Part shown: positions 2,893 to 37,506 of the stretch, piece after piece
Layout: each line of letters begins with the position of its first letter
How positions within the stretch are numbered: the first letter of the stretch is position 1
DNA from: a virus
Lineage: Duplodnaviria > Caudoviricetes
Virus record (IMG/VR): IMGVR_UViG_3300011339_000240
Span: 1-60,662 of that record
DNA: 60,662 bases
Reading direction: 5' to 3' (one strand)
Translations under genes and position numbers: made by a program
Notes under the pieces: generated by a model
Seen by the model: only the letters and a program-made list of their open reading frames with translations
The model's database searches: none
Told to the model about the DNA's origin: nothing

Positions 2893-4683
2893 TTAACCAA
2901 AAATACTTTTGAAAAGAGCAGAAGTTCCCGTCGCCCCAGCCGCTGCGGCAGAGTACGGGTTAGTAGTTGTACTATACGATTGTGTTTGTAGCGGCATGCC
3001 CTGAAGCATAGACTGTTGGAACTGAAGCTGTTTATATGGATCAGCTTTTTGCTGTTCAAACTGTGCCTGTGCAGCGGCAAGACCTGCTTGTTCAGTCTGC
3101 TGTTGAGTTCCACCCAAGCCTGCCATCAAATTAATATTAGCCAAGTTCTTGTTTTGCTCAGTGTTGTACTGACCTTGTGCAGCTTGGTATGCGGCCTGCA
3201 ATCCTTGTGCTTGAATGTCGTTCATCTGGGTTCCCAGATTACGCTCACGTTCTGCGCGCTGAATAGCGTCACGACCACCACCAAATGCCCCCGCCTGCAC
3301 TGCTTGTGCCTGTTGCTGAGTACCTTGGATGCCTGATTGACGAGCCGCCTCACGTTTTTGGATATCCACTACATTTTGCATATAGGGAGACATATAAGAA
3401 GCCGCCGTACCTGCATTGGTAAACGACTGTCCGGTCAAATTACCCGCTTCTCCAAAAGCTTTATTCTGAAGCGCAGAAGGCCCAGCGGTAAGCTCACCTT
3501 GATAAAACTGCGGCTTTTCTAATGCAGCACTGGTAAGTGCTTGGGTTTTACCCATTAAATCCGTAACGTAAGGGCCAGCCCAAGTGGATAAATTGGATTC
3601 CGATCCTGTAGCTGTTGCCGGAACAGCGGGAACTTTAGGTGTAGTAACTTCATCTCCCGCAGCAAACCGAGCTACACCGCCAGCAGCGTAACTAGCAAGA
3701 CCACCCGGCATAAATTTACTTGGGTTAATTTCCTTGCCCTGTTTTTCGCTACCTGTACGAGCCATGCGGATTCTGTCCATCATCTTGTAGAGTTGCTTAG
3801 CCCCTGCATCAGAGTTGCCATTGCCAAGATGGGACACAACGTCAGCAGGAATAACAAACTCCCCATGAGCCAGACGAGCAGGTTGAATATCGTCAATGGT
3901 TCCCGGAATCTTGTCTGCCATACCATCGGTATCACCCCTCAAATAAGTGCCATGTGGATGTGTTGGCTTTCCACCACGAGCTAGTCCCATGATACCTCCG
4001 TATGCAGCTTTAACCGTGGTATCAACAGGTAACCTTGCCGCTTGTTGAGCTGCATCCTGTTGAGCATTAGCGGCGTTAAGCGCGTTCAAACCTGTTACCT
4101 GTGTATCAATAGCTGTTTGTGCTGCGGGCAGTCCACCTGCGGGCGCAAATTTAATGCCTGTAAAGTACTGGTGTCCAGCACCCGGACGCGCCCCAGCAGC
4201 AGGTTCAGCCGCACGACCTTGCACCGCAGTGTACGAAGGGATGCCGCCTTGGTAGCCCACGGGTTTGTTAGACTTTTCAGCATCCGTATATGCTTTGTAC
4301 GCACCAACAAGTCCAGCGCCGCTTGATGCAACTTTGCCCCAATCTATATCAGTTGTTCCCGGTTTTAGGAACTTAGCTTTAAGTGCATTTTGAATATAGT
4401 CAGGTATACCTTTAAGCTGATCTAAAAAACTTACCCCCGCAGCATCAGGCGGAGTCCCCCAAATTTGTTTTTGAGTTTCCCGTTGTAGCTCATCGGGGTC
4501 TAATTGATTTGTAGTATCCCCCGAAAGAGGAACATCAAAAGAAGTATCAGTGTAACCGTCACCGGGGGTACTTGTGGTATCCGTGGGAACAAAATCTGGT
4601 GCATACGATGTTGTATCGGTGGCATCTACCGTCAGAGGAACGTCAAAAGAAGTGTCAACGTAATCCGTATAATCATAAGCCAT
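2893..4683 (-). CDS. Putative internal virion (DNA pilot-like) protein with 'GDTDGMADKIP..LAHGEFVIPADVV' domain
   Basis: 596 aa; C-terminal Q/A-rich region (YMSPY, AGAFGGGR) typical of podovirus pilot proteins; several x-x-GG motifs. Confidence 0.65.
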   Translation of the reverse strand: MAYDYTDYVDTSFDVPLTVDATDTTSYAPDFVPTDTTSTPGDGYTDTSFDVPLSGDTTNQLDPDELQRETQKQIWGTPPDAAGVSFLDQLKGIPDYIQNALKAKFLKPGTTDIDWGKVASSGAGLVGAYKAYTDAEKSNKPVGYQGGIPSYTAVQGRAAEPAAGARPGAGHQYFTGIKFAPAGGLPAAQTAIDTQVTGLNALNAANAQQDAAQQAARLPVDTTVKAAYGGIMGLARGGKPTHPHGTYLRGDTDGMADKIPGTIDDIQPARLAHGEFVIPADVVSHLGNGNSDAGAKQLYKMMDRIRMARTGSEKQGKEINPSKFMPGGLASYAAGGVARFAAGDEVTTPKVPAVPATATGSESNLSTWAGPYVTDLMGKTQALTSAALEKPQFYQGELTAGPSALQNKAFGEAGNLTGQSFTNAGTAASYMSPYMQNVVDIQKREAARQSGIQGTQQQAQAVQAGAFGGGRDAIQRAERERNLGTQMNDIQAQGLQAAYQAAQGQYNTEQNKNLANINLMAGLGGTQQQTEQAGLAAAQAQFEQQKADPYKQLQFQQSMLQGMPLQTQSYSTTTNPYSAAAAGATGTSALFKSIFG

Positions 4684-4684
4684 A

Positions 4685-6493
4685 CTAACTCCTTAAATTC
4701 CGCAACAATTCCTCAATGGACATTGATGGCGAATACTGGTTTAACAATGATTCTACTGGATTGCGTTCGTTTGTAGGGGGCAAAATATCTGCCCCAGTCA
4801 TATCCAAATAGTACTGTATGTCAGCCAAAGGTGTAGGCTGACTTTGAGTTGTGGTCTGGTAAAGCTGCTCCACCGGGTCGGTTGATTTAACCGGAGTGGT
4901 AGGCGTTACCGGAGTAACGGGTTTTGTAGGTATCTTGGGGGCAACAGGTATCTTAGGGGTAACAGGCGTGCCGGGGGTGTCCGCTATTACTTCTTTTACC
5001 GTGTTATCCGGCAAGGGCGGTGCTGGCTCTAAAGGAAGTAACGGGGTATCTTCGCCCGCTATTACTTCAGTAACTGTATTATCTGGTAATGGCGGCGCTT
5101 CTTCTAAATCTTTAAGAATAGTATCAACTTCGGTTACTGTGTTATCTGGCAGCGGCGGGGCTTCTTCCAAAGGAATTAACGGGTTGGCTATACCAGTTAC
5201 CTCTACTGTAAAAGGAGGTTCCTCATCTGTTACTAAACCTGCATCAGTTAATACGTCTTCTATTGGTTTATTTTCAACAGGTATGTCACTAGTGGTACTA
5301 CGGTCTAATGCGTCTTGAAATGCTTGGTCAGAAGCGGCGGGGCTTATAAGGTCTTCATCTTTAGACCCATCTACTAATCCTGCATTAGTCAATACTTCCG
5401 TGACCGTGTTGTCCGGCAGTGACGGCGCTTCTTCTAAAGGAATTAACGGGGTATCGGTGATTTGATCGCCAGTCAGCGCCGCTACTTGGTCTGGTGGAAG
5501 CGCCTTCACATCACCTGTTGGTGCTACATCAGGTTTATTAGCTTGACTAATTAAAGTATTAACTACACTTTTAGCGGCTCCTTCAGCACCACCAGTTGCA
5601 GCTCCAATAACCCCTGATGTAATCAGACTAGCTGTTTTTGGGTCAACATCTTTTAGGGCTACGTTAAACGCAGCATTTGTACCACTATTAACAAGGCTGT
5701 TAGTCAATGAGTCTGTTATCTGGTCAGCATTACCCCCAGCAGCGGCGGTTTTTACTACAGAAGCACCGGCGTTAACAATAGCTTTTGCTACAGCCGGACT
5801 TTCAAGAACCGTGGATAAAGCTTTTGTTGCTTCGGGCGAATAAACACCCAACCCTGCGTTAACAATGCCGTTTTTTATAGCTTCGTCAATAGGCTTGCCC
5901 TGTGCTACTTGTACCGCCGTACTTGCAATCGCGGTTCCAATAACAGTAGCGGTGGCAGTAGCAGCAGCACCCGCAGCCGCCGCACCAGCAGCAGTAGCGC
6001 CAGCCGCAGTGGCAGCAGCAGACGCACTAGCGGCACTAGTCAAAACCCCCGCACCCATTAGTTGACTACCAATTGCGGCTCCAATACCGGGGAGAAATAT
6101 AGGTAAGGCTACTGCTAGCATTACGGTCAATGGATCAGGCCCTTGGCTTTTATCGCTGTAATGACTTCTGAATTCTCCTTGTTCCCCATAGTATGTTCTA
6201 CCGTCTGATGTTATTTTTTCGAACACCATACGGTTAGGTTCAGTAGTTAACTGAGGTTTTAACCCATTAGCTGCAACCCAATCTGGCAAACCTTGTGGGT
6301 ACTTAGATGCTATTAAAGCGTCAAGTTTTTGTTTATATGCAGCCTCAGCAGACGCAACTCTATCCTTTTCTGCCTGTAATGCTATTGCTTGACCTCTGCT
6401 GGCCGCAGCTAATCTGTTCCTGTAGCTTGTATCTGATTCGCCTCTTGCTCTTGGAAGTGATGGAGTTGTTGATGGTCGTACTTGTCCTCCCAT
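4685..6493 (-). CDS. Putative internal virion protein with hydrophobic Ala-rich segment and acidic Pro-rich repeats
   Basis: Start moved to ATG 6493 behind AAGGAG RBS; 602 aa. Confidence 0.65.
   Translation of the reverse strand: MGGQVRPSTTPSLPRARGESDTSYRNRLAAASRGQAIALQAEKDRVASAEAAYKQKLDALIASKYPQGLPDWVAANGLKPQLTTEPNRMVFEKITSDGRTYYGEQGEFRSHYSDKSQGPDPLTVMLAVALPIFLPGIGAAIGSQLMGAGVLTSAASASAAATAAGATAAGAAAAGAAATATATVIGTAIASTAVQVAQGKPIDEAIKNGIVNAGLGVYSPEATKALSTVLESPAVAKAIVNAGASVVKTAAAGGNADQITDSLTNSLVNSGTNAAFNVALKDVDPKTASLITSGVIGAATGGAEGAAKSVVNTLISQANKPDVAPTGDVKALPPDQVAALTGDQITDTPLIPLEEAPSLPDNTVTEVLTNAGLVDGSKDEDLISPAASDQAFQDALDRSTTSDIPVENKPIEDVLTDAGLVTDEEPPFTVEVTGIANPLIPLEEAPPLPDNTVTEVDTILKDLEEAPPLPDNTVTEVIAGEDTPLLPLEPAPPLPDNTVKEVIADTPGTPVTPKIPVAPKIPTKPVTPVTPTTPVKSTDPVEQLYQTTTQSQPTPLADIQYYLDMTGADILPPTNERNPVESLLNQYSPSMSIEELLRNLRS
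4983..5452 (-). repeat. Four imperfect coding repeats (PLIP)LEEAPPLPDNTVTEV
   Basis: Visible in the translation and in the DNA. Confidence 0.9.
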
Positions 6494-12628: not shown

Positions 12629-14550
12629 AGTTTGCTTTCAAGTTGAGCCACGCGGCGGCGCAGCGATTGCAATTCGGCTATGAGGTTGGCGATGATTTCA
12701 GCACTGGAGTAATCCATCGCTTGCATCTCAGAGCCGTCTTTTACGCCCGTTGCCACGTTGGTGCGGCTGGCCTCTTGGACTTCGTGAGCAATCAAGCCAA
12801 CAAAGGTAGAGCCATCAGCCTTCCATGTTCCTTCAACGGGGTTCAGGCTGTCGATGTATGCACCAGAGGTGGTAATCGGGCCTGTGATGTTTTTCAGACG
12901 GTAGTCGGAGGATGTGTTGTATGCAACTGCGGTTGTGCCGCTTTGCGTAATGGAGCCGATTTGACTGCCGTTATATCCGAACCCAATATAGCCGTCCCCA
13001 TTAGTGTTTGCCGTTGAATGGTTAACGTAAACCTTACCGTCTCCAACTCCTTGAAAGGTAAAGGATCGAGAGTTTGTAAAGCCAGTACTCGTAGTCCCCA
13101 CCAGCAAGTTACCGCTGGAGTCGATGGTGACACGAGCGATAGCGCTACCGTTCGCCGCATTGGTGTAGAAAATCTGGCGTGTAGGTGGGTTTTGACCTGA
13201 CGTATACGTGCCATCAACCTCAATCGTCATGGCGTTAAGGTAGGTGTAAGCAGACCCTTGGTATGGTGCTACACGCAACAAGAACAGACCGTCACCGTCA
13301 GATACACCAGCAGGCGATGCAGTTGTACCACGCGACTTTATGTAATCCAAAACAGGCGCAAACGCATTGGCCGTAGACCGTTGCATTGTGATGCCGTCTG
13401 ATCCATTTACGGTCAGCTTTGTGATTGCGGTAGTAGTACCAACAGCCAAATTCCCACTCGCATCCAGCGTCATTGCTTGGGTGAAGGTGATGGCAGCGCC
13501 TGCGGTGCCGGAGGGGGCGTTGAACCAAGCGTGTTGGCCGCTGAAAGATTGGTATTGCGATGCTGCAGCAGTAATTCCGTACCGCCAGTTGGTACCGTTG
13601 TACCAAGCGTTTGCTGACAAAAACACGTTGTTGTTTGCAGCACTGGCAAGGCTTGATCCAACACCCGCAAACTCAAATGCCTTCAACCCGCTCCACGCAC
13701 TCGGCGTCACCCCCAAGCCGAGGTTGCCGGAGGAGTCGAGGCGCATAGACTCCGCACCGCCTTCCGCAAAGGCAATAGTGTCAGCAGCAGGGAAAAAGAT
13801 GCCTGTGTTGGTGTCGCCTGTAGTGGTGATGGCGGGAGCAGCAGCAGAACCCGCAGAGAAGGTTGCGACACCCGTAGCACTCAGCGTAGTAAACGCACCC
13901 GCCAACGGAGTAGTTGTTCCGATAATGACGTTGTTAATCTGGTTGCCGCCGCCAGCAATCGTCCCACCGAGGGTAAACGCGCCGATGGTGTTAGCCGTCA
14001 ACGTAGTGCCGTTGAAGGTCAAGTTGGCGGAGTCAGTTTCAAGGCCACCAGTGGTGGAGTACACCACACGGCCCGATGTCAGGCCAGAGTTGGTGATGGA
14101 GCTAAATACCCCTGCGCCGCCCGAAGCGTTGGACAACTTGGCGTAATCAGTGCCGTTCCAGAAAACATGCGCCTTCTCGCCATTGACCAGCGTTACGCCG
14201 CTGGTAGCAGAGCCTTTGACGGTCAGAGCAAACCCACCAGTGGTGTTGTTGTTGATTAGATAAATACGGCTGCTGCTAGGCACAATCAAGTTACGCGCTG
14301 CGGTCATAGCCCCGCTGACGTTTAGGATAGCGTACTGCGCCGTGGTCGAGCCGATGTTGGTTGCCGAGCTTGTACCCTGCGTAATACTGAGCGTGACATC
14401 AGTTGTGGTGATGGTGATCGCCAAGCCGCCAGCAATGGCAATGTCCAAGTAAGACGTAACGGCGTTGTTTACGTCATCGCCCCATGTGCCGGACTCAGTG
14501 CCGGTTACCGGCTGTCCAAGGGAAAGGTTAGTTGTGTAATTGACTGTCAT
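12625..14550 (-). CDS. Tail fibre/spike with C-terminal intramolecular chaperone (peptidase S74)
   Basis: GTWG N-terminus, repeated MRLDSSGNLG units, YNTSSDYRLK cleavage motif, GLIAHEV, terminal coiled coil. Confidence 0.85.
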   Translation of the reverse strand: MTVNYTTNLSLGQPVTGTESGTWGDDVNNAVTSYLDIAIAGGLAITITTTDVTLSITQGTSSATNIGSTTAQYAILNVSGAMTAARNLIVPSSSRIYLINNNTTGGFALTVKGSATSGVTLVNGEKAHVFWNGTDYAKLSNASGGAGVFSSITNSGLTSGRVVYSTTGGLETDSANLTFNGTTLTANTIGAFTLGGTIAGGGNQINNVIIGTTTPLAGAFTTLSATGVATFSAGSAAAPAITTTGDTNTGIFFPAADTIAFAEGGAESMRLDSSGNLGLGVTPSAWSGLKAFEFAGVGSSLASAANNNVFLSANAWYNGTNWRYGITAAASQYQSFSGQHAWFNAPSGTAGAAITFTQAMTLDASGNLAVGTTTAITKLTVNGSDGITMQRSTANAFAPVLDYIKSRGTTASPAGVSDGDGLFLLRVAPYQGSAYTYLNAMTIEVDGTYTSGQNPPTRQIFYTNAANGSAIARVTIDSSGNLLVGTTSTGFTNSRSFTFQGVGDGKVYVNHSTANTNGDGYIGFGYNGSQIGSITQSGTTAVAYNTSSDYRLKNITGPITTSGAYIDSLNPVEGTWKADGSTFVGLIAHEVQEASRTNVATGVKDGSEMQAMDYSSAEIIANLIAELQSLRRRVAQLESKL

Positions 14551-30970: not shown

Positions 30971-31162
30971 CTAACTATCTGATTGTTGTAAACGCTTTTC
31001 CATATCTTTTACATAGTATAAAGATTTAGTTAAACCTAGTATCTGACCACATAAATATTTATATTCTGCAAAATCATGTATTGCACCAGAAGTAATTACT
31101 TGATTCATTTGTTGTAAATCTTCATCTATCTGTTTAATTAATACACTCATAGCATCCATCAC
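30971..31162 (-). CDS. Hypothetical protein
   Basis: DFAEYKYLCGQI.GL; coupled to the portal gene. Confidence 0.65.
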   Translation of the reverse strand: MMDAMSVLIKQIDEDLQQMNQVITSGAIHDFAEYKYLCGQILGLTKSLYYVKDMEKRLQQSDS

Positions 31163-33636
31163 ATACCTCCGGGAGTTAGTTTCTGTTGCTGAAGTTGATC
31201 TTTATGCATCATGCCTTGTTGATGTACTTGGGCTTGTTGTTGTTGGGCTTGGGCTTGGGCAGCTTGCGCTTGAGCAGCTTTTTGAGCATTAATTTGAAGC
31301 TGTTGCTGATGCAGTTGTTCTGCCTGCATAGCTTCTTGTTCAATCTGCATCGGGCTGATGCCACTCTTATCTGCATCTAAAGCTAGTCTTGCTTGAGCCA
31401 GATTAATGTCCGCTTCAATTTTTCTAACGTCTGCATCAGTCTTTTGCTTCTTAATCTGAAGCTCTTGCATTTGCATTTGAATAATTGGGTCTTGCATCTG
31501 TTGTTGTGCTTGGACTTGCGCCGCTTGAGCTTTATTCATCTGCAACAATTGCTGTGATGCCTGTGCAACAGCACGGGACAATTCAACTTCAAGCTCAGGA
31601 GAAAGCTCAACGTCCGGCTTAGGCAATGGAGCGCCAAGGCGTTCTTCAATCTTGACGCGGTACAAGAATCCTAGATGCTCTGCAATATGCGACTGAATAG
31701 CTGCTTGCATTTGTTGAGCCATAGGGTTTTGACCAATCTGTGCTGCAATCATTGGGTCTTGCATAAAGGTTGAATGCACAGCAATGTGAGCTTCGTGGTC
31801 TTGGTAGATAAATGCCTTAGTAGGTTTACCTTTGAGAAAAGCCATGTTTTCACTAATAGGATCACGCGGTTTCTGGTCATCCTCAATGGGCACAATTTTG
31901 TCGGCATTTTTAACACCCAGCACTTCAATCATCTGGCGATGTAAGTACGGCAGGTTATAAATATTAGGAGCTTGAGCAGACAATTGGGTAACTGCCTGAT
32001 ACTGCATAATCCGCTGCGCCATCGTGGTGCTATTGGGATCGCTGACCGGAATAATCTCAACCAAGTCATAGTCTGCTTGTTTGGCTTTACGGTTTCCGCC
32101 TTCTGGTTTATAGTTGTATTCTTCTGGCGTATGGTCACGAATTAATTCTTTAAGCAGTTTAAATTCCTGCTTCATAGAATAGTGAACACGCGCCTGCACC
32201 GCGCTCATTGTTTTTAACTGACGCTCTAACAAAGCTAGCGTAGTTCCTACAGGCGCATTAGCGCCCATGTCACTTACTTGGATATCAGCTATTGAACCAA
32301 GGCGACGGCCTTCTTCTGTAATCTGATTAAGCAGGGCCAGCAATACTTGGCTTGGCTCTTTATAGGGAAGCGGCATGATGTTGTCACGGATTGATCCAGA
32401 CGCAACATCAACATCCCTAAATTCTCCCGGCGCAATAGGAGTATCGTCACCCTTAACTCTAAGGCCACGGGCTTTCATACCTCCGGGCAAGTTGCTCAAA
32501 GTACCAGCATCTACCAACTGGCGAATTAAAGAAGTACCCGCACGGGCATATCCACCAATCAGGTGAATCAGTCCTAAGCCATAAGCTCCAAAGCCGGGTA
32601 CATACGTGTACTGTACAAAGTGTTGGCGCTTTTGTTTTGTCTTGTCATCCTCTTCCCAGTTACGGCGTATGGCTAGGATTTCAGTAGTACTACGATCAAT
32701 GGTAACTACATAAGGGCGGGCTACTCCATCTTTATCCTCGTACCCCGGCATGTCGTAGTCAACGTGGATTTCATAAATCTGGTAGCGGTCATCGTCAGTT
32801 AATGAATAGCCTTGGCCTTCGGCTTTTTTCTTTTCTACGTCAGTATGTGTGTTGTCTGGCTCACCTAGATCAATATCCCGATAAAAGCCTGCAACTTGTA
32901 AATGACGGATTTCATTTTTAGTCTTACGCATTAAGTGCGTAACACGTTCCGCTGTATTGGCACTAGATGCGCCATAGGGAATAATTAAATCTTCGGCAGG
33001 AATAAACATTGCCGTTTGGCGATTTAAAGCAGGGTCAAAGTAGACCTTTTTAAATGCTGCTCCAGCTAGACCAAGGTTATACAAAAGCCGTTCATGTTCA
33101 GGCCGGTACTCGGTCATTACATCTGTTAGCTGGTAGTTCATGTCCTCACGAACACGCTCTGCTGCTTCTACAGTTTGCTCATCGTCATCACCAATAATTT
33201 GAGTCTTAACTGGGCCTTGTGCCGGGAAGCTTTCAGTAATTGTTTCACTTTGGAAACGGATAGCTGCTTCGGTAAGAATAGTAGAGAAAACTCCACAAGC
33301 GCCATTCCAAGGTTCTGTTCTTTCTTCGTAGTTCATGCCAAGGACTTCTAGTCCTTTTACATACATCTCTACCCAGTCTTTTCTAGATTGGATATCTGAT
33401 TCCACTAACTCTATTAACTCCGAGCCAAGTTTTTGTAACTCGCCCTCGTCCATTGCTTCGGCTAGGTTTTCATCAAAGTCACCTTCTGCATGGGAGAGAA
33501 TTTCAATCTCCATGTCCCCCGCATGAACTGTAACGCTATCAGGATTCTCAATTTCAATCTCAAGCGCATCTTCAATATTTTCATCAATACCCATTGGCGC
33601 TTGATACAGAGAAGGGGCCATGCTATTGGTTGCCAT
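31159..33636 (-). CDS. Portal protein
   Basis: 825 aa after terL; RTEPWNGAC, FKKVYFD, GAYGLGLIHL, long Q-rich C-terminal helix. Confidence 0.9.
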   Translation of the reverse strand: MATNSMAPSLYQAPMGIDENIEDALEIEIENPDSVTVHAGDMEIEILSHAEGDFDENLAEAMDEGELQKLGSELIELVESDIQSRKDWVEMYVKGLEVLGMNYEERTEPWNGACGVFSTILTEAAIRFQSETITESFPAQGPVKTQIIGDDDEQTVEAAERVREDMNYQLTDVMTEYRPEHERLLYNLGLAGAAFKKVYFDPALNRQTAMFIPAEDLIIPYGASSANTAERVTHLMRKTKNEIRHLQVAGFYRDIDLGEPDNTHTDVEKKKAEGQGYSLTDDDRYQIYEIHVDYDMPGYEDKDGVARPYVVTIDRSTTEILAIRRNWEEDDKTKQKRQHFVQYTYVPGFGAYGLGLIHLIGGYARAGTSLIRQLVDAGTLSNLPGGMKARGLRVKGDDTPIAPGEFRDVDVASGSIRDNIMPLPYKEPSQVLLALLNQITEEGRRLGSIADIQVSDMGANAPVGTTLALLERQLKTMSAVQARVHYSMKQEFKLLKELIRDHTPEEYNYKPEGGNRKAKQADYDLVEIIPVSDPNSTTMAQRIMQYQAVTQLSAQAPNIYNLPYLHRQMIEVLGVKNADKIVPIEDDQKPRDPISENMAFLKGKPTKAFIYQDHEAHIAVHSTFMQDPMIAAQIGQNPMAQQMQAAIQSHIAEHLGFLYRVKIEERLGAPLPKPDVELSPELEVELSRAVAQASQQLLQMNKAQAAQVQAQQQMQDPIIQMQMQELQIKKQKTDADVRKIEADINLAQARLALDADKSGISPMQIEQEAMQAEQLHQQQLQINAQKAAQAQAAQAQAQQQQAQVHQQGMMHKDQLQQQKLTPGGM

Positions 33637-33645
33637 ATGTATTCC

Positions 33646-36033
33646 TTAATAGTAAGTGTTCTTGCGGCGGAAACTCTTTATCTCTTCTTTTTCATCTGAG
33701 TCCAGACGGATAAAGCCACCTTTTCTAAACCGAATTAATGCCTGTGTTGATGAGTCCACCAAGTCATCGTGATCCCCGTTTGGGAAAGCTGCCATCTGCT
33801 CAATCACTTCTGTAGCCCACCTTGTTTCAGGAGCCCACACTTTACCACTACTAAATAAATCAGTAATAGAATTTATCCGCACAAATTTATCATTGCCACG
33901 GGTAGGTGTGTATTCTGACACAGGGATTCCCATTTGTCTAAGCTCAAACACAAGCGGAGCGCCAGCAGCTTTGGCTTCAATAATACAAGCATCAGGCTCC
34001 CAGTCCTGATACATAACAAGAGCCTTTGCCTTCAGTTCAGGGAACTCCATCCTCTTTTGGAACGCATCTAACAGGATAATGTTTATATTATTAGGGTCAT
34101 CATTTAACCCAAAGACACCCCAAGTCGTGCAGGCAGAATAGTCAGACCTCTCGTTTTTTGTAAACGCCGTATCCCAAGACTGAATAATAAAATCACAAGG
34201 CGGCGGTCTTTCTGCTTTCCAAATCTTCCACCACTCTCTTTTAACTAACGCACCCTCCTCCCCAGTAGGAGTCTGTTGATATTGTGCGTACCATTTAGCC
34301 GGGGGTAGTTCATCCCTTAAAGCCTCCAATTCCTTAGCCGACCAGAATTCAGGCCATAAGGGTTTACCCGAAGGCATGATGGCTGGGAATTCAATGACTT
34401 CCCACTCCTCCCCTTTGTCTCGGAGCATGGCATCTTTGATAACTCTGCCGGTCAGATCTCTCTCACCCCAGCGGGTATTATGGCTAACTACTCCATTTGC
34501 AATAAAGTTTTCAGTCCGGTCAACCTCAACATCAAAAACTTCTTCTTTTCCTGAATAGGCAATGCTAACTATTGGATTTGCCGTAAAGTCGGAGATACGA
34601 TGCAGCTCGCTCAAGAATGCTTGCTGTTTTTCCATATCCAACTGCAAGATTGCAGTCGTTACACAATAATCCTCTGATTTTCCCTGTGGTGTGGCAGTGG
34701 TCAATACAGAGTTTTCCGTTCCAATGCGCCCTTGTATTTTTTTCTGAAGGCGGTTTACCGCAGACATCGCAGAGGTTATTGCGGTCTTGAACCATACGCT
34801 CGTACTGCTCTTGGGTAATTCCGTAGCGGTGTTTAATACGATGTTTGCGCGCTTGGTCTGAAGATTTTTTTGGTGTGTATGTTTTACCGTAATGCGTAGA
34901 ACATAACCCACGACTTGCAATAATTTTGCTGCACCCTTCAACGCTGCATGTAAGACCTTTCCACTTCCCATGATGCCCAATCGGTTGATAAGGGGCATCT
35001 GGATTTTTCCGGTGGTAACTTTCTCTTGCTTGGCAAGGTGCACACTTTCCGGGCTTAATTTGTGATCTTGCTGGGCGTTGGCATCCTTCGTTGTTACAAG
35101 CAACATACCCTGTTTTAAGTGTTTTAGTCTTGTCCATTCCAGTACACCTTTATTCATTACAAGAAACGGATGCCTCTCGTTTGCTCGAATAATTATACCA
35201 GATTGTGTTTGTACTGTGTATATAGAATCAACACCACTTGACCGCCAATTGTTAACTTTGCTGGCGTTTAATTTACCTTTGTCAAACGTAGCTACCATGT
35301 CTCCGGGGCGGATGTTTTTTAACTGGGTATTTGTACCATTTGCCATTAAGACATTAGTATCTCCCGTCATGCACATCACAATAACAATTGCCCCACCCGG
35401 CTGCAAACGCTGACGCGGCCCAGATGTGTACCACTCATACACTTTGTCAAAGACAGACGGATCACCAGACGCTAAAGCCGCTTCTTGTTCTGAATGTGGG
35501 TCATCAATAATAAGTAAGTCTGCCCCTTTGCCGGTAACAGTTCCCCCCACCCCGATAGCAAAGTATTCCCCGTTCTGATTAGTCGCCCACCTACCAGCGG
35601 CTTTACTGTCCTGTCTCAAACTTACATTAGGGAATACCCTAGCATACGTCTCTGACCCAACCAAGTTCCTAACCTTCCGTCCAAATCCTACCGCGAGATC
35701 CGCCGTGTTAGAAGATTGAATCACTTTCTTATCAGGGTACTTCCCTAAGAACCAAGACGTTAGTAAATAAGAGGCAAACTCACTTTTAGTGTGGCGAGGC
35801 GGCATATTGATGATGAGCCTCTTCAAACTCCCATCGGCAATAGCCTCGAATTTTTTTGCCATTACAGCGTGGTGTCTCCCGTGGATAAATCCGGGCCACA
35901 TCAGTTTCACATACTCCATAAAAGACTTCTGAGCCAGCTCCCGCGACAAAGCACCCTTGTACTCCATCACATCCGCCATGAACTTTTCGTATTCAGCGGG
36001 CTCTAACTTGTCAATCAAGTCCTCTAGCTTCAT
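33646..36033 (-). CDS. terL: Terminase large subunit with intein (mature ~496 aa)
   Basis: MPPRHTKS Walker A, LIIDDP Walker B, IVIVM|TRW split by the intein, SWDTA, IIEAKA, HDDLVDS nuclease motifs. Confidence 0.95.
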   Translation of the reverse strand: MKLEDLIDKLEPAEYEKFMADVMEYKGALSRELAQKSFMEYVKLMWPGFIHGRHHAVMAKKFEAIADGSLKRLIINMPPRHTKSEFASYLLTSWFLGKYPDKKVIQSSNTADLAVGFGRKVRNLVGSETYARVFPNVSLRQDSKAAGRWATNQNGEYFAIGVGGTVTGKGADLLIIDDPHSEQEAALASGDPSVFDKVYEWYTSGPRQRLQPGGAIVIVMCMTGDTNVLMANGTNTQLKNIRPGDMVATFDKGKLNASKVNNWRSSGVDSIYTVQTQSGIIIRANERHPFLVMNKGVLEWTRLKHLKQGMLLVTTKDANAQQDHKLSPESVHLAKQEKVTTGKIQMPLINRLGIMGSGKVLHAALKGAAKLLQVVGYVLRITVKHTHQKNLQTKRANIVLNTATELPKSSTSVWFKTAITSAMSAVNRLQKKIQGRIGTENSVLTTATPQGKSEDYCVTTAILQLDMEKQQAFLSELHRISDFTANPIVSIAYSGKEEVFDVEVDRTENFIANGVVSHNTRWGERDLTGRVIKDAMLRDKGEEWEVIEFPAIMPSGKPLWPEFWSAKELEALRDELPPAKWYAQYQQTPTGEEGALVKREWWKIWKAERPPPCDFIIQSWDTAFTKNERSDYSACTTWGVFGLNDDPNNINIILLDAFQKRMEFPELKAKALVMYQDWEPDACIIEAKAAGAPLVFELRQMGIPVSEYTPTRGNDKFVRINSITDLFSSGKVWAPETRWATEVIEQMAAFPNGDHDDLVDSSTQALIRFRKGGFIRLDSDEKEEIKSFRRKNTYY
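34477..35373 (-). mobile_element. Intein (299 aa) in terminase ATPase coupling motif
   Basis: Block A CMTGDTNVLMANG, block B ANERHPFL, blocks F/G VFDVEVDRTENFIANGVVSHN, +1 Thr. Confidence 0.92.
34565..35137 (-). CDS. Endonuclease VII-family homing endonuclease nested out of frame in the intein
   Basis: RYGIT..QY, CDVC, LCIDHCHTTGKIRGLLCNDCN; two N-terminal Zn-finger-like motifs; AAGGTG SD-like sequence upstream. Confidence 0.88.
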   Translation of the reverse strand: MDKTKTLKTGYVACNNEGCQRPARSQIKPGKCAPCQARESYHRKNPDAPYQPIGHHGKWKGLTCSVEGCSKIIASRGLCSTHYGKTYTPKKSSDQARKHRIKHRYGITQEQYERMVQDRNNLCDVCGKPPSEKNTRAHWNGKLCIDHCHTTGKIRGLLCNDCNLAVGYGKTASILERAASYLRLYGKSNS

Positions 36034-36347
36034 TGGATAGTCCTAAAGTTAATGTAAACCGGTCTGACCGTCCTACCCTTACCCTTTAACCTCTTCACCA
36101 CCCCCAAATCCACTAAGTTATCCACAATCCGCTTCGTATTTCCCAGCCCCATCTTTCCCCGCTGGTAAGCAATCTCCCTCAAAGACGGCGAATACCCAAA
36201 CTTCTTCCACCATTCATCAATAATTAAGAACACTTCACTCTGTCCGGGGCTCATATCCTTCTCCATACACTGTTCATACGTAAAATCCGCCAACTTTCGC
36301 GTCATCTTCTTGTTTATTTGCACTGTTCCCATACAAATCCTTACCAA
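36030..36347 (-). CDS. LexA-type winged-helix DNA-binding protein (no peptidase domain)
   Basis: SPGQSEVF..I...W...GYSPSLREIA; true start may be further downstream. Confidence 0.7.
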   Translation of the reverse strand: MVRICMGTVQINKKMTRKLADFTYEQCMEKDMSPGQSEVFLIIDEWWKKFGYSPSLREIAYQRGKMGLGNTKRIVDNLVDLGVVKRLKGKGRTVRPVYINFRTIQ

Positions 36348-36555: not shown

Positions 36556-37233
36556 TTAGGAAGATAAGGGGGGGTCTTCTGGAAAATCAGGATTTTCTTG
36601 AGGCACTTCGAGTGGAATAGTATGTAAATAATTCAGGGACTCCTCGCTGTCGTTTGGGGGGGTGGCGGGTGGGTGGGGTGCGAGTTCGGCGAGTAGTGAA
36701 TCGGCATCTACGTCCACGGCATCGATTGATTGTGCGCGCATGATGGCCCGCAGTTGTTCAAGTACCTGTGCGCGAGCATCGACACTATGCTTGATGGTCG
36801 TTACTTCCTTCCTCTCAGTGAAGGCCGCCACTTCGGTAACAGTGCCCAGCACCTTCGCAGCGGCGACCTTTGTGGCCTGTTTCGCATCGGGATCGATCAC
36901 CACTTGCACTAGGGATTGAATGACTAAAGCACGGAGAGCCGCAGGGGATTGGTATTCCTGAGCCGCTAATGCAAGCTTGTAAGCTTCGATTTCACGGGAC
37001 ACCAATGGGTTTCGCGCTACCGCATAAGGCTCTGATACGATTGTAGAGGGCGCTGCATTGGGTTTATATGATCGCCTATAGGCTTCGGCCTTAGTTGATC
37101 CCCTCGCTACTTCCCTAGCGAATGTCTTTTGTTTATGTGTTAACTCGCGGGAAACGCTAGAAGAAAACAATTGATCTAGTGGTACTGTATCTAATGCTTG
37201 GTTTACTTGCTTACGAGATAACTTGCCTGCCAT
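36556..37233 (-). CDS. terS: Terminase small subunit
   Basis: LTHKQKTFAREVARG.TKAEAYRRSY HTH; upstream of terL; start moved to MAGKLS. Confidence 0.7.
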   Translation of the reverse strand: MAGKLSRKQVNQALDTVPLDQLFSSSVSRELTHKQKTFAREVARGSTKAEAYRRSYKPNAAPSTIVSEPYAVARNPLVSREIEAYKLALAAQEYQSPAALRALVIQSLVQVVIDPDAKQATKVAAAKVLGTVTEVAAFTERKEVTTIKHSVDARAQVLEQLRAIMRAQSIDAVDVDADSLLAELAPHPPATPPNDSEESLNYLHTIPLEVPQENPDFPEDPPLSS

Positions 37234-37506
37234 GGCTTCGCCTTTTAACGGGGCCGCGACCGCCGCGACCATGCGCGGATTATAGGAACAAATCAGGAAA
37301 CCGCAATAGCCTGTATAAAACCCCAGTAGCAATCCATACCATTGTCCCTAAAAACCACTGTATATAAACCCATTAGGGTTTTGGAGGGGTCTTATAGATC
37401 AACAACTTACAAGAGTTGGCACGATTCTATTATGCTATATAGGGTAAGAGGGTAACATTTTAACAGGTAGCACTAGCCCTCTGCTACCACCTACAAAGGC
37501 CACACA

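Follow-up and report, generated by a model that had tools for sequence, protein, structure and literature searches.

A large terminase intein of an uncultured phage with an endonuclease VII-type gene nested in a second reading frame

The large terminase gene (terL) in the complete 60.7-kb genome of an uncultured phage (IMG/VR record IMGVR_UViG_3300011339_000240; its 60,662 nucleotides, analysed as a whole, are referred to here as the window) contains a class-1 intein whose central DNA also encodes, one base out of step with terL, a predicted zinc-finger and endonuclease VII-type nuclease. This layout of intein and nested nuclease is real and under selection. In our favoured reading, which we hold with high confidence, the intein is mobile and its out-of-frame middle is a separate homing endonuclease gene with its own start; splicing, translation of the nested ORF and cleavage of the empty site are inferred. 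A layout of this kind has already been described for other phages, and the element is thus a further example of an out-of-frame-nuclease intein, not a new kind of element. The genome has a GC content of roughly 46% and is of an aquatic, non-actinobacterial type; its nearest TerL relatives are those of phage 023Pt_psg01, DSL-LC04 and Pelagibacter phages.

Organisation of the terL intein and the nested gene

The intein is inserted immediately before the conserved TRW motif of TerL (Table 1). The initial annotation had described an intein of 299 aa with intact splicing blocks, and these are present as C1 (CMTGDT), ANERH and SHN/T, the slash marking the junction. An alignment of 49 relatives shows no variation at C1, H68, H298 or N299, and in block B (TxxH-type, here NERH) N65 is invariant together with H68. 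The intein begins with CM followed by T, V or A in 66 of 67 relatives, the exception (L015) looking like a chimeric contig, and the HN/TRW junction is found in all 67 evaluable relatives. The frame from C1 to HN/T is uninterrupted in 67/70; of the remaining three, two are truncated at a contig end and the third is frameshifted next to an 'n'.

Table 1. Features of the terL locus in the window.
Feature	Position	Strand	Basis or remark
terL (large terminase) precursor ORF including intein	33646..36033	-	795 aa; PHROG 38 terminase large subunit 7.5e-102; Pfam Terminase_6C 3.6e-12
N-extein (TerL aa 1-220), end ...AIVIVM	35374..36033	-	aligns gapless at the junction with intein-less TerL relatives
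Class-1 intein, 299 aa, TerL aa 221-519 (C1 ... SHN), then Thr+1	34477..35373	-	Pfam Intein_splicing 1.4e-17
HINT splicing fold, N-terminal half (intein aa 1-100)	35074..35373	-	pLDDT 82-95; conserved in alignment of relatives
Intein-frame 'filler' (intein aa 101-241)	34651..35073	-	stop-free, protein not conserved, predicted disordered
HINT fold, C-terminal part (intein aa 262-299, blocks F/G, ...VFDVEVDRTENFIANGVVSHN)	34477..34590	-	pLDDT 90-95; invariant block in alignment
C-extein (TerL aa 520-795), starts TRW (Thr+1)	33646..34476	-	ORF; HN/TRW in relatives
Nested endonuclease VII-type gene, putative homing endonuclease, 190 aa + stop, +2/-1 frame relative to terL	34565..35137	-	ORF, ATG start, profile matches, conservation
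Endonuclease VII / beta-beta-alpha-metal catalytic core (nuclease aa 99-183)	34589..34843	-	Pfam, invariant residues, structure comparison
Shine-Dalgarno-like AAGGTG	35145..35150	-	7 nt before nuclease ATG; family consensus GAAGGAG
Suppressed synonymous block, intein codons 45-79, candidate expression signals	35138..35241	-	directly upstream of nuclease start
Sigma-70-like promoter match TACACA-17-TGGTATAAT, a lead	35192..35220	-	10/12 matches; ends 55 nt upstream of nuclease ATG

In the predicted structure the HINT fold is made by the N- and C-terminal parts of the intein, and the model matches the mini-intein NpuDnaB (4o1r) in Foldseek with an E of 7.5e-10, a TMt of 0.89 and an rmsd of 1.8, there being 56 matches in all at E <= 0.001. 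The intervening intein aa 101-241 are modelled without secondary structure at a pLDDT of about 30, and no Pfam or PHROG match was found for the 178-aa middle of the intein frame (intein aa 81-258), in agreement with the earlier claim that this frame holds no recognisable nuclease. Nor does the middle look like a conserved folded domain in its own right, being predicted disordered, without a family match and not conserved. From the intact blocks and the essential role of TerL we infer that the precursor is probably spliced.

The nested ORF starts 896 nt into TerL (896 mod 3 = 2), which places it in the +2 (= -1) frame, and it spans intein aa 79-270, between the splicing blocks. It is a complete endonuclease VII-type ORF, as had been annotated. 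HMM searches of both frames, which had been suggested as a check, returned Intein_splicing in the intein frame and Pfam Endonuclease_7 (PF02945) in the nested ORF, the latter at 7.9e-18 and 64.6 bits (cut-off 23.6) over aa 99-183 and profile positions 2-81 of 82; in PHROGs the ORF matches endonuclease VII (PHROG 2914, 2.2e-27). Nuclease residues C123, C126, D146, H147, H149, C159, C162 and N163 are invariant in 49/49 sequences and align to the 'DHDH ... GLLCNLCN' stretch of T4 endonuclease VII; presumably they have the same roles as there, as four zinc-binding Cys and a D-H-x-H ... N catalytic motif.

A zinc-bound beta-beta-alpha-metal core with this motif and four Cys would be shared with T4 endonuclease VII (1e7d, 1e7l, 1en7) and with Hpy99I (3fc3). 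Profile matches reach 1.1e-3 for T4 endonuclease VII 1e7d and 2.4e-4 for Hpy99I, and the best Foldseek match of the nuclease model is 1e7l (probability 0.98, E 0.02). Compared with 1e7l by VIA, the model gives a Z of 5.3 (range 5.3-5.4) over 61 aligned residues with an rmsd of 3.5, a Z under 8 being one that can reflect a common arrangement; with such modest scores, the predicted core may resemble T4 endonuclease VII and HNH folds. The nuclease has ~95 extra residues at its N-terminus, with two Cys-rich modules, whereas the C-terminal dimerisation region of T4 endonuclease VII is unmatched. The T4 protein resolves DNA junctions and is not known to act as a homing enzyme. We regard the product of the nested ORF as a zinc-finger and endonuclease VII-type nuclease with predicted activity, encoded by a single copy in the genome.

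Conservation of the layout and selection on the shared DNA

Read across TerL, the nuclease frame contains 61 stops and one 194-codon gap, which falls exactly at the nested ORF, the longest alternate-frame open run within the window. By an exact dynamic-programming calculation, the probability that the nuclease frame is open when the intein-frame protein is kept is 8e-7, and the probability that the TerL frame is open when the nuclease protein is kept is 1.1e-3; the naive estimate of 1e-4 in the initial annotation falls between these two nulls, and its claim of a shadow frame open beyond chance stands. The frequency of alternate-frame stops in the 28 long ORFs of the window (0.070 per codon) gives 9e-7 for 191 codons. 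A chance origin of the double open frame is excluded, with P between about 8e-7 and 1e-3 according to the null used, and at ~46% GC the two long open frames are not attributable to base composition.

The same layout was found in every relative examined. Measured against every part of TerL, the nuclease reads in the +2 frame at 107/108 loci, as well as at 11/11 metagenome loci and 23/23 further loci, both frames are open in all 74 distinct sequences, and the insert length is a multiple of 3 in 99/100; loci were selected for their similarity to the query, and these counts do not estimate frequencies in a population. When longer proteins were searched for in-frame variants, four matches were obtained, among them P0001 and P0002, which are N-extein-IntN-nuclease fusions ending at the nuclease stop. 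Both are singletons with internal deletions, and their closest relatives carry either the usual two frames or no insert at the site. Neither contig turned up in the metagenome scan or in two viral scans, and the pair may represent genuine deletions, split genes or errors.

Substitutions in the shared DNA follow the pattern of a nuclease gene, with purifying selection on the nuclease and the intein frame merely kept free of stops. Column entropy at nuclease codon positions 1, 2 and 3 is 0.69, 0.49 and 1.23 bits respectively, and amino-acid identity is 67% in the nuclease frame versus 42% in the intein frame, the nuclease frame being the more conserved in 2477/2485 pairs. Among 401 isolated differences in 17 disjoint pairs, 69% leave the nuclease residue unchanged while altering that of the intein frame (23% expected), and in the same pairs no stop-creating changes were seen where about 9% were expected. 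The comparison of substitutions per frame across homologues, which had also been proposed, yields an omega-like ratio of 0.13 for the nuclease frame versus 1.7 for the intein frame. This per-frame pattern is clear evidence for a functional nested gene.

The nuclease start and its upstream region

The nested gene had been credited with its own ATG and a Shine-Dalgarno-like site, and both are in place. The start lies at one alignment column in all 71 sequences compared (ATG in 66, GTG in five) and 236 nt from the intein start in 66/67, and it falls on the same HINT Trp codon in phages Phlyer, Affeca and AlanGrant. In the 105 nt before it, the entropy of 4-fold third positions is 0.60 bits, versus 1.64-1.84 in the flanking extein and intein zones.

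The signals behind this constraint can be named only as candidates. The Shine-Dalgarno-like site has GG in 71/71, at a position shared with a conserved Gly codon of the intein, and the promoter-like match, a good extended -10, has TG in 67/67 relatives and at least 5 of 6 hexamer positions in 47/67; the conservation of both motifs is confounded because both overlap conserved Hint codons. Promoter-like sites are not enriched upstream of the nested start, with four found versus 4.7 expected from shuffles. The RNA fold at the start has a z-score of -0.46 for the single sequence, and the consensus fold of the alignment is weak (-5.26 kcal/mol), with a double change in 3/20 pairs and little covariation; these values speak neither for nor against a hairpin that would sequester the Shine-Dalgarno-like site. 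An antisense ORF (35078..35413, + strand), for which no family match was found, was considered as the cause of the synonymous constraint and rejected, the matching frame being broken in 5/66 relatives within 35 codons.

Mobility, alternative readings and relation to described inteins

Loci with both extein flanks (n = 156), chosen for similarity to the query and classified as occupied or empty by separate queries with each flank, comprise 56 with an empty site and 100 with an insert of 885-915 nt; intein and nuclease are both present in 100/100 inserts and neither is present in 56/56 empty sites. On an extein tree of 109 rows the intein label changes 12 times, with at least eight changes forced, and a count as low was reached in 0/500 shuffles. 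The window lies within a 99%-supported clade of eight whose other seven members are empty, and the site is empty in phages whose exteins are 97-98% identical. At the insertion site the intein-less terL allele reads ...GTTATYGTRATG followed directly by ACYCGCTGGGG.... Empty sites among such near-identical exteins would fit homing. No co-conversion tract was seen beside the insertion site against the eight nearest empty alleles (DNA identity about 80-91%; mismatch density flat around the junction in two gapless comparisons), and at the DNA identity of the nearest empty alleles, only about 90%, such a tract would escape detection. The nearest intein found has a nuclease only 77% identical, so no donor is identified.

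We propose that the two ends of the intein would form the HINT splicing fold, and that the middle in the terL frame would be an unstructured filler that need only stay stop-free and is excised as part of the intein during protein splicing. The same middle DNA, one base out of step, would be the separate zinc-finger and endonuclease VII-type nuclease gene, translated from its own (A/G)TG, on the conserved HINT Trp codon, after the Shine-Dalgarno-like site; further signals in the 105 nt upstream probably serve this start. By analogy with intein and free-standing homing endonucleases, the nuclease may cut intein-less terL alleles at co-infection, and repair would copy the intein with its nested gene into the cut allele. 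An origin by invasion of a mini-intein by a free-standing nuclease gene, as the initial annotation had suggested, is plausible as a hypothesis, and invasion of the intein by a free-standing HEG is also what Gosselin et al. (bioRxiv 2025) propose.

It seems to us unlikely that the nuclease is instead a phage housekeeping enzyme riding in the intein, either a packaging-associated resolvase like T4 endonuclease VII or a terminase-associated HNH protein. Its membership of the Endonuclease_7 family is compatible with such a role, as is the fact that T4 endonuclease VII clears branched DNA before packaging. A 2015 brucellaphage paper likewise speculates on a functional association for an HNH that overlaps TerL. 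However, the nuclease never occurs without the intein in the inserts and empty sites counted above, and it is absent from relatives with 97-98% identical exteins and therefore dispensable. There is also only a single copy in the genome, and the N-terminal Cys-rich modules replace the T4 dimerisation domain, only aa 99-190 aligning to T4 endonuclease VII residues 1-87. Very improbable, in our view, is production of the nuclease by programmed -1 ribosomal frameshifting, as a fusion to the N-extein and intein-N with no start of its own. The -1 frame relative to terL would suit this, as would the in-frame fusions P0001 and P0002, although these are deleted singletons beside relatives with two frames. 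A stop in the nuclease frame lies four codons before the ATG in the window and directly before it in some relatives, the position of the start codon is conserved in 71/71, and no slippery heptamer is conserved, conservation being poor over the first 10 nuclease codons; the frameshift fusion is rejected.

Still less probable is decay, in which the nested ORF would be a nuclease relic and the intein, a mini-intein with a long linker, would by now pass only by vertical inheritance. Such a history would agree with the lack of a donor or co-conversion tract, but not with the omega-like ratio of 0.13, the lack of stops in 74/74 distinct sequences, the invariant catalytic and zinc ligands (49/49) or the sporadic distribution on the extein tree. 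We give almost no credence to an assembly or indel artefact that hides a nuclease truly in the intein frame, a danger recognised from the outset and judged through independent assemblies. Relative L022 is indeed frameshifted beside an ambiguous base, but both frames are open in the window, the +2 relation recurs across more than 100 contigs from independent assemblies and in the finished genomes of cultured actinophages, and all but one of 100 insert lengths are divisible by 3. A mobile intein with a separate nuclease gene is the reading that we retain.

Homologous actinophage inteins with an Endo VII-like ORF in frame 3 (+2) were described by Gosselin et al. (bioRxiv 2025), with Affeca, Keitabear, Sedona, Angelicage and others as members. 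The window element shares with these its TerL site (...CM/...HN/TRW), the +2 frame, a start codon on the HINT Trp codon and an unstructured in-frame middle. The whole intein matches published members at E 8e-40, with about 34-35% identity over the full length, and the nuclease is 36-53% identical (53.4%, E 5e-40, for the ORF nested in the terL intein of Gordonia phage Affeca). The 39 cultured phage records that the intein matches (E <= 1e-5) are all actinophages. The window is an uncultured ~46% GC phage of aquatic type, and its TerL is not closest to that of a high-GC actinophage. The main text of Gosselin et al. (2025) contains no occurrence of 'metagenom' or 'start codon', and upstream synonymous suppression was not found reported in it; the per-frame substitution analysis, the homology of the start codon and the upstream synonymous constraint are what we add to that work.

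The 2015 brucellaphage paper also notes an out-of-frame intein HNH in TerL. As presented there, this nuclease gene, in a phage whose host is Gram-negative, follows the design of the window element and overlaps the central part of terL in a different frame. It is apparently a different intein, and no brucellaphage is among the 39 cultured-phage records matching that of the window at E <= 1e-5. With these two reports, the expectation in the initial annotation that such nucleases would be rare rather than unprecedented proved sound. A cyanobacterial dnaX intein with a LAGLIDADG homing endonuclease in the +2 frame is described in a preprint by Phillips, DeSimone and Gogarten (bioRxiv 10.64898/2026.09.14.751524); it has the overlapping-frame nuclease, the low omega in the nuclease frame and high omega in the intein frame, and the sporadic distribution in common with the window element, but it is an unrelated intein with a LAGLIDADG nuclease in a cellular host gene. 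Canonical inteins with an in-frame LAGLIDADG or HNH nuclease, such as the first intein in the TerL of locus L195, have the same HINT fold with the nuclease between blocks B and F. Their nuclease is a domain of the intein polypeptide, whereas that of the window is a separate polypeptide in another frame; L195 has both intein types in one terL.

Beyond the cultured actinophages from which it was reported, the overprinted-nuclease intein is widespread among uncultured phages of the environment, with at least 309 related stretches in IMG/VR, and annotation of one frame per locus misses nested genes such as this endonuclease VII-type ORF. The synonymous constraint ahead of the nested start offers a testable lead on the expression of an overlapping selfish gene from within an essential late gene. 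Tentatively, and with a little less than even confidence, we suggest that the element is not a transient accident of invasion but an old and stable three-layer design, common to phages of unrelated hosts (phages of actinobacteria, and aquatic phages whose TerL is Pelagibacter-phage-like). The nuclease start would be welded onto the HINT Trp codon, constraint would be handed over at about nuclease codons 10-20, and the last 105 nt of HINT-N coding would be a control element at the nucleotide level, either an internal promoter or a structure that sequesters the ribosome-binding site. If this is true, the control element would set nuclease expression independently of the highly expressed terL.

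Packaging module and the nested endonuclease gene

Direct terminal repeats bound the 60,662-bp window, and the virus record is complete. The small LexA-type gene sits between the genes for the small and large terminase subunits, with its stop overlapping the terL start. The initial annotation described a TerL intein with intact splicing blocks and no recognisable nuclease in its own frame, overlapped by a complete endonuclease VII-type ORF in a shifted frame, and profile searches of both frames bear this out. The intein frame matches Intein_splicing, and the nested frame matches Endonuclease_7 in Pfam (7.9e-18, 64.6 bits; cut-off 23.6) and endonuclease VII in PHROGs (2.2e-27). No PHROG family matches the intein's own frame, and its middle 178 residues have no match in Pfam (E ≤ 0.1) or PHROGs (E ≤ 0.01). 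The nested ORF starts 896 nt into terL (896 mod 3 = 2), and AAGGTG lies 7 nt 5' of its ATG. We note that a 111-aa ORF on the opposite strand overlaps the N-terminal third of the intein. With no family match, and with the corresponding frame interrupted in 5 of 66 relatives, this ORF is unlikely to be a gene.

Features of the window discussed in the text
Feature	Coordinates	Strand	Assignment
Terminase small subunit-like gene	36556..37332	-	PHROG 51, 1.9e-5
Small LexA-type winged-helix gene (105-aa DNA-binding domain protein)	36030..36347	-	Pfam LexA_DNA_bind 1.3e-5; PHROG 3502
terL, 795 aa	33646..36033	-	packaging module
Intein, TerL aa 221-519	34477..35373	-	C1, ANERH, SHN then Thr+1; Pfam Intein_splicing 1.4e-17
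Nested nuclease ORF, 190 aa, ATG	34565..35137	-	Endonuclease_7 (Pfam); endonuclease VII (PHROGs)
Antisense ORF, 111 aa	35078-35413	+	
Portal gene	31159..33636	-	packaging module
Alternate-frame open run, 162 codons	~13391-14143	+	

When terL is read in the nuclease frame there are 61 stops and one 194-codon gap, exactly at the nested ORF. With the intein-frame protein fixed and synonymous codons redrawn from the window's usage, the probability of an open nuclease frame is 8e-7, and it is 9e-7 when computed from how often stops actually occur in the alternate frames of 28 long ORFs (0.070 per codon); with the nuclease protein fixed under a synonymous null, the terL frame is open with a probability of 1.1e-3. 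Second in length among the window's alternate-frame open runs is one of 162 codons, +2 relative to the long ORF that it overlaps; here the other frame may simply be the real gene.

In a model built with a 49-sequence alignment, the two ends of the intein (aa 1-100 and 262-299) are predicted at pLDDT 82-95 and match mini-inteins (NpuDnaB 4o1r, TMt 0.89, rmsd 1.8; 56 matches at E ≤ 0.001), and residues 101-241 have no secondary structure and a pLDDT of ~30. The nuclease model (mean pLDDT 72) has T4 endonuclease VII 1e7l as its top Foldseek match (probability 0.98, with a modest E of 0.02), and VIA gave similarly modest Z values of 5.3 to 1e7l (61 residues) and 5.4 to the EcoKMcrA HNH domain; the sequence profile matches Hpy99I (2.4e-4) and T4 endo VII (1.1e-3). 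Residues C123, C126, C159, C162, D146, H147, H149 and N163 are invariant in all 49 sequences, as are two N-terminal Cys-rich modules (C14/C19/C32/C35 and C64/C69/C79).

Selection on the two frames and the region upstream of the nested start

Across 183 ungapped codon columns in 71 sequences, variability at nuclease codon positions 1, 2 and 3 is 0.69, 0.49 and 1.23 bits, with the maximum at the third position, which is the second position of the terL codons. The same DNA yields a mean pairwise identity of 67% in the nuclease frame against 42% in the intein frame, and the nuclease frame is the more identical in 2477 of 2485 pairs. Seventeen disjoint nearest pairs provided 401 isolated differences, 277 of which (69%; expected 23%) are synonymous in the nuclease frame and non-synonymous in the intein frame. 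The non-synonymous/synonymous ratio relative to expectation is 0.13 in the nuclease frame versus 1.7 in the intein frame, and none of the changes introduces a stop codon into either reading frame (~9% expected). Periodicity of the terL frame is limited to nuclease codons 1-10 and hands over by codons 11-22, coinciding with the point where confident modelling of the HINT fold stops. That the middle of the intein frame might itself be a conserved folded domain is disfavoured both by its low model confidence and by its low identity in that frame.

The nuclease start column holds ATG in 66 of 71 sequences and GTG in five, and its distance from the first base of the intein is 236 nt in all but one of 67 relatives, which has 239 nt. 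In the window and in the cultured actinophages Phlyer, Affeca and AlanGrant, the first base of the start codon is the third base of one intein codon, and its TG belongs to the next, a conserved HINT Trp codon. The family consensus 5' of the start is GAAGGAG with a 7-nt spacer, overlapping a Gly codon. Third-position entropy at conserved 4-fold codons is 1.70 bits in the N-extein, 1.84 in intein codons 1-44, 0.60 in codons 45-79 (the 105 nt preceding the nuclease start), 1.64 in the last 30 intein codons and 1.78 in the C-extein; synonymous variation is suppressed 5' of the start, over and above the GAAGGAG overlap. A TGnTAnAAT-like motif starts 60 nt 5' of the nuclease start (TG in 67/67, at least 5/6 hexamer matches in 47/67). 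Shuffled sequences contain promoter-like matches at least as often as this region does, and a candidate SD/AUG-pairing stem at the nested start has weak energy and little covariation, so we claim only constraint at the nucleotide level, which most plausibly reflects expression signals for the nested gene.

Conservation of the frame relation and mobility

Searching IMG/VR with the nuclease found at least 309 related stretches, of which 80 (62-77% identity) were retained; the TerL query found many more among the matches listed. Among these loci, the window and the three actinophages, the nuclease is +2 relative to every TerL part found in 107 of 108 nuclease-bearing loci, as it is in 11/11 metagenome and 23/23 further viral loci, some contigs being shared between searches. 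The terL frame is open over the entire nuclease stretch in 74/74 distinct sequences, and C1..HN|T is uninterrupted in 67 of 70, the others being two truncated by contig ends and L022, the sole +2 exception. L022 is also the only relative with a frameshift in terL between block F and the stop of the nuclease (3560-3600); an ambiguous base 'n' stands at that point, so an assembly problem is the probable cause.

Several other arrangements were observed. A related 1135-aa terL in L195 (2453-5860; also in L196, L244 and L245) carries two inteins. One is canonical, with an in-frame LAGLIDADG domain, and directly follows the Walker B-like LLIIDDPH; the second is of the out-of-frame endonuclease VII type and occupies the TRW site (nested ORF 4348-4944). 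In two singleton database proteins, P0001 (476 aa) and P0002 (449 aa), N-extein and intein-N continue in frame into the nuclease, whose C-terminal two thirds are retained up to its stop; the junctions differ between the two and involve internal deletions, and each protein may be a decaying variant, a split-gene variant or an error. In the terL locus L015 (1221-1290), the first 22 C-extein codons (TRWGKRDLTGQV...) replace the first 22 intein codons and the intein resumes at residue 23. This pattern suggests that two alleles of a single sample, one with the intein and one lacking it, were joined in a chimeric assembly or by recombination.

The 156 loci with both extein flanks comprise 56 empty sites and 100 inserts of 885-915 nt, counts that follow from choosing loci for their resemblance to the query and so are not population frequencies; intein and nuclease are both present in all 100 inserts. 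The seven nearest exteins (~97-98% amino-acid identity) all have an empty site, and the nearest bearing the intein is 84% identical. Mapped onto a tree of 109 distinct exteins, presence or absence of the intein requires 12 changes, eight or more of them forced, and none of 500 shuffles was as low; the window is the sole intein carrier in its 99%-supported clade of eight. No co-conversion tract was detectable at the insertion site.

Relation to known inteins

The best nuclease matches among cultured phages lie within terL of Gordonia and Mycobacterium phages (53%, 47% and 36% identity), and the nested ORFs of Phlyer, Affeca and AlanGrant likewise occupy the +2 frame. The window element is homologous to the actinophage inteins with an out-of-frame nuclease of Gosselin et al. 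(bioRxiv 2025), who term theirs the first report and propose that a free-standing HEN invaded an intein; metagenomes and start codons are absent from their main text. A 2015 brucellaphage paper already describes a putative intein-encoded HNH gene out of frame inside terL, and a 2026 preprint by Phillips, DeSimone and Gogarten (bioRxiv 10.64898/2026.09.14.751524) shows frame-dependent selection on the +2-frame LAGLIDADG gene of a dnaX intein. The window intein matches 39 of 50,697 cultured-phage records, all actinophages, and the window TerL is nearest to phage 023Pt_psg01, DSL-LC04 and Pelagibacter phages; judged from these matches, the element is a further member of a known intein type in a different phage group. 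What the initial annotation observed is confirmed and its interpretation, a separate nuclease gene inside the intein, is supported; the origin that it proposed, invasion of a mini-intein by a free-standing nuclease gene, is plausible. To the known type the element adds clean selection evidence at moderate GC, positional homology of the start codon between distant phage groups, and a constrained block 5' of the nested start.
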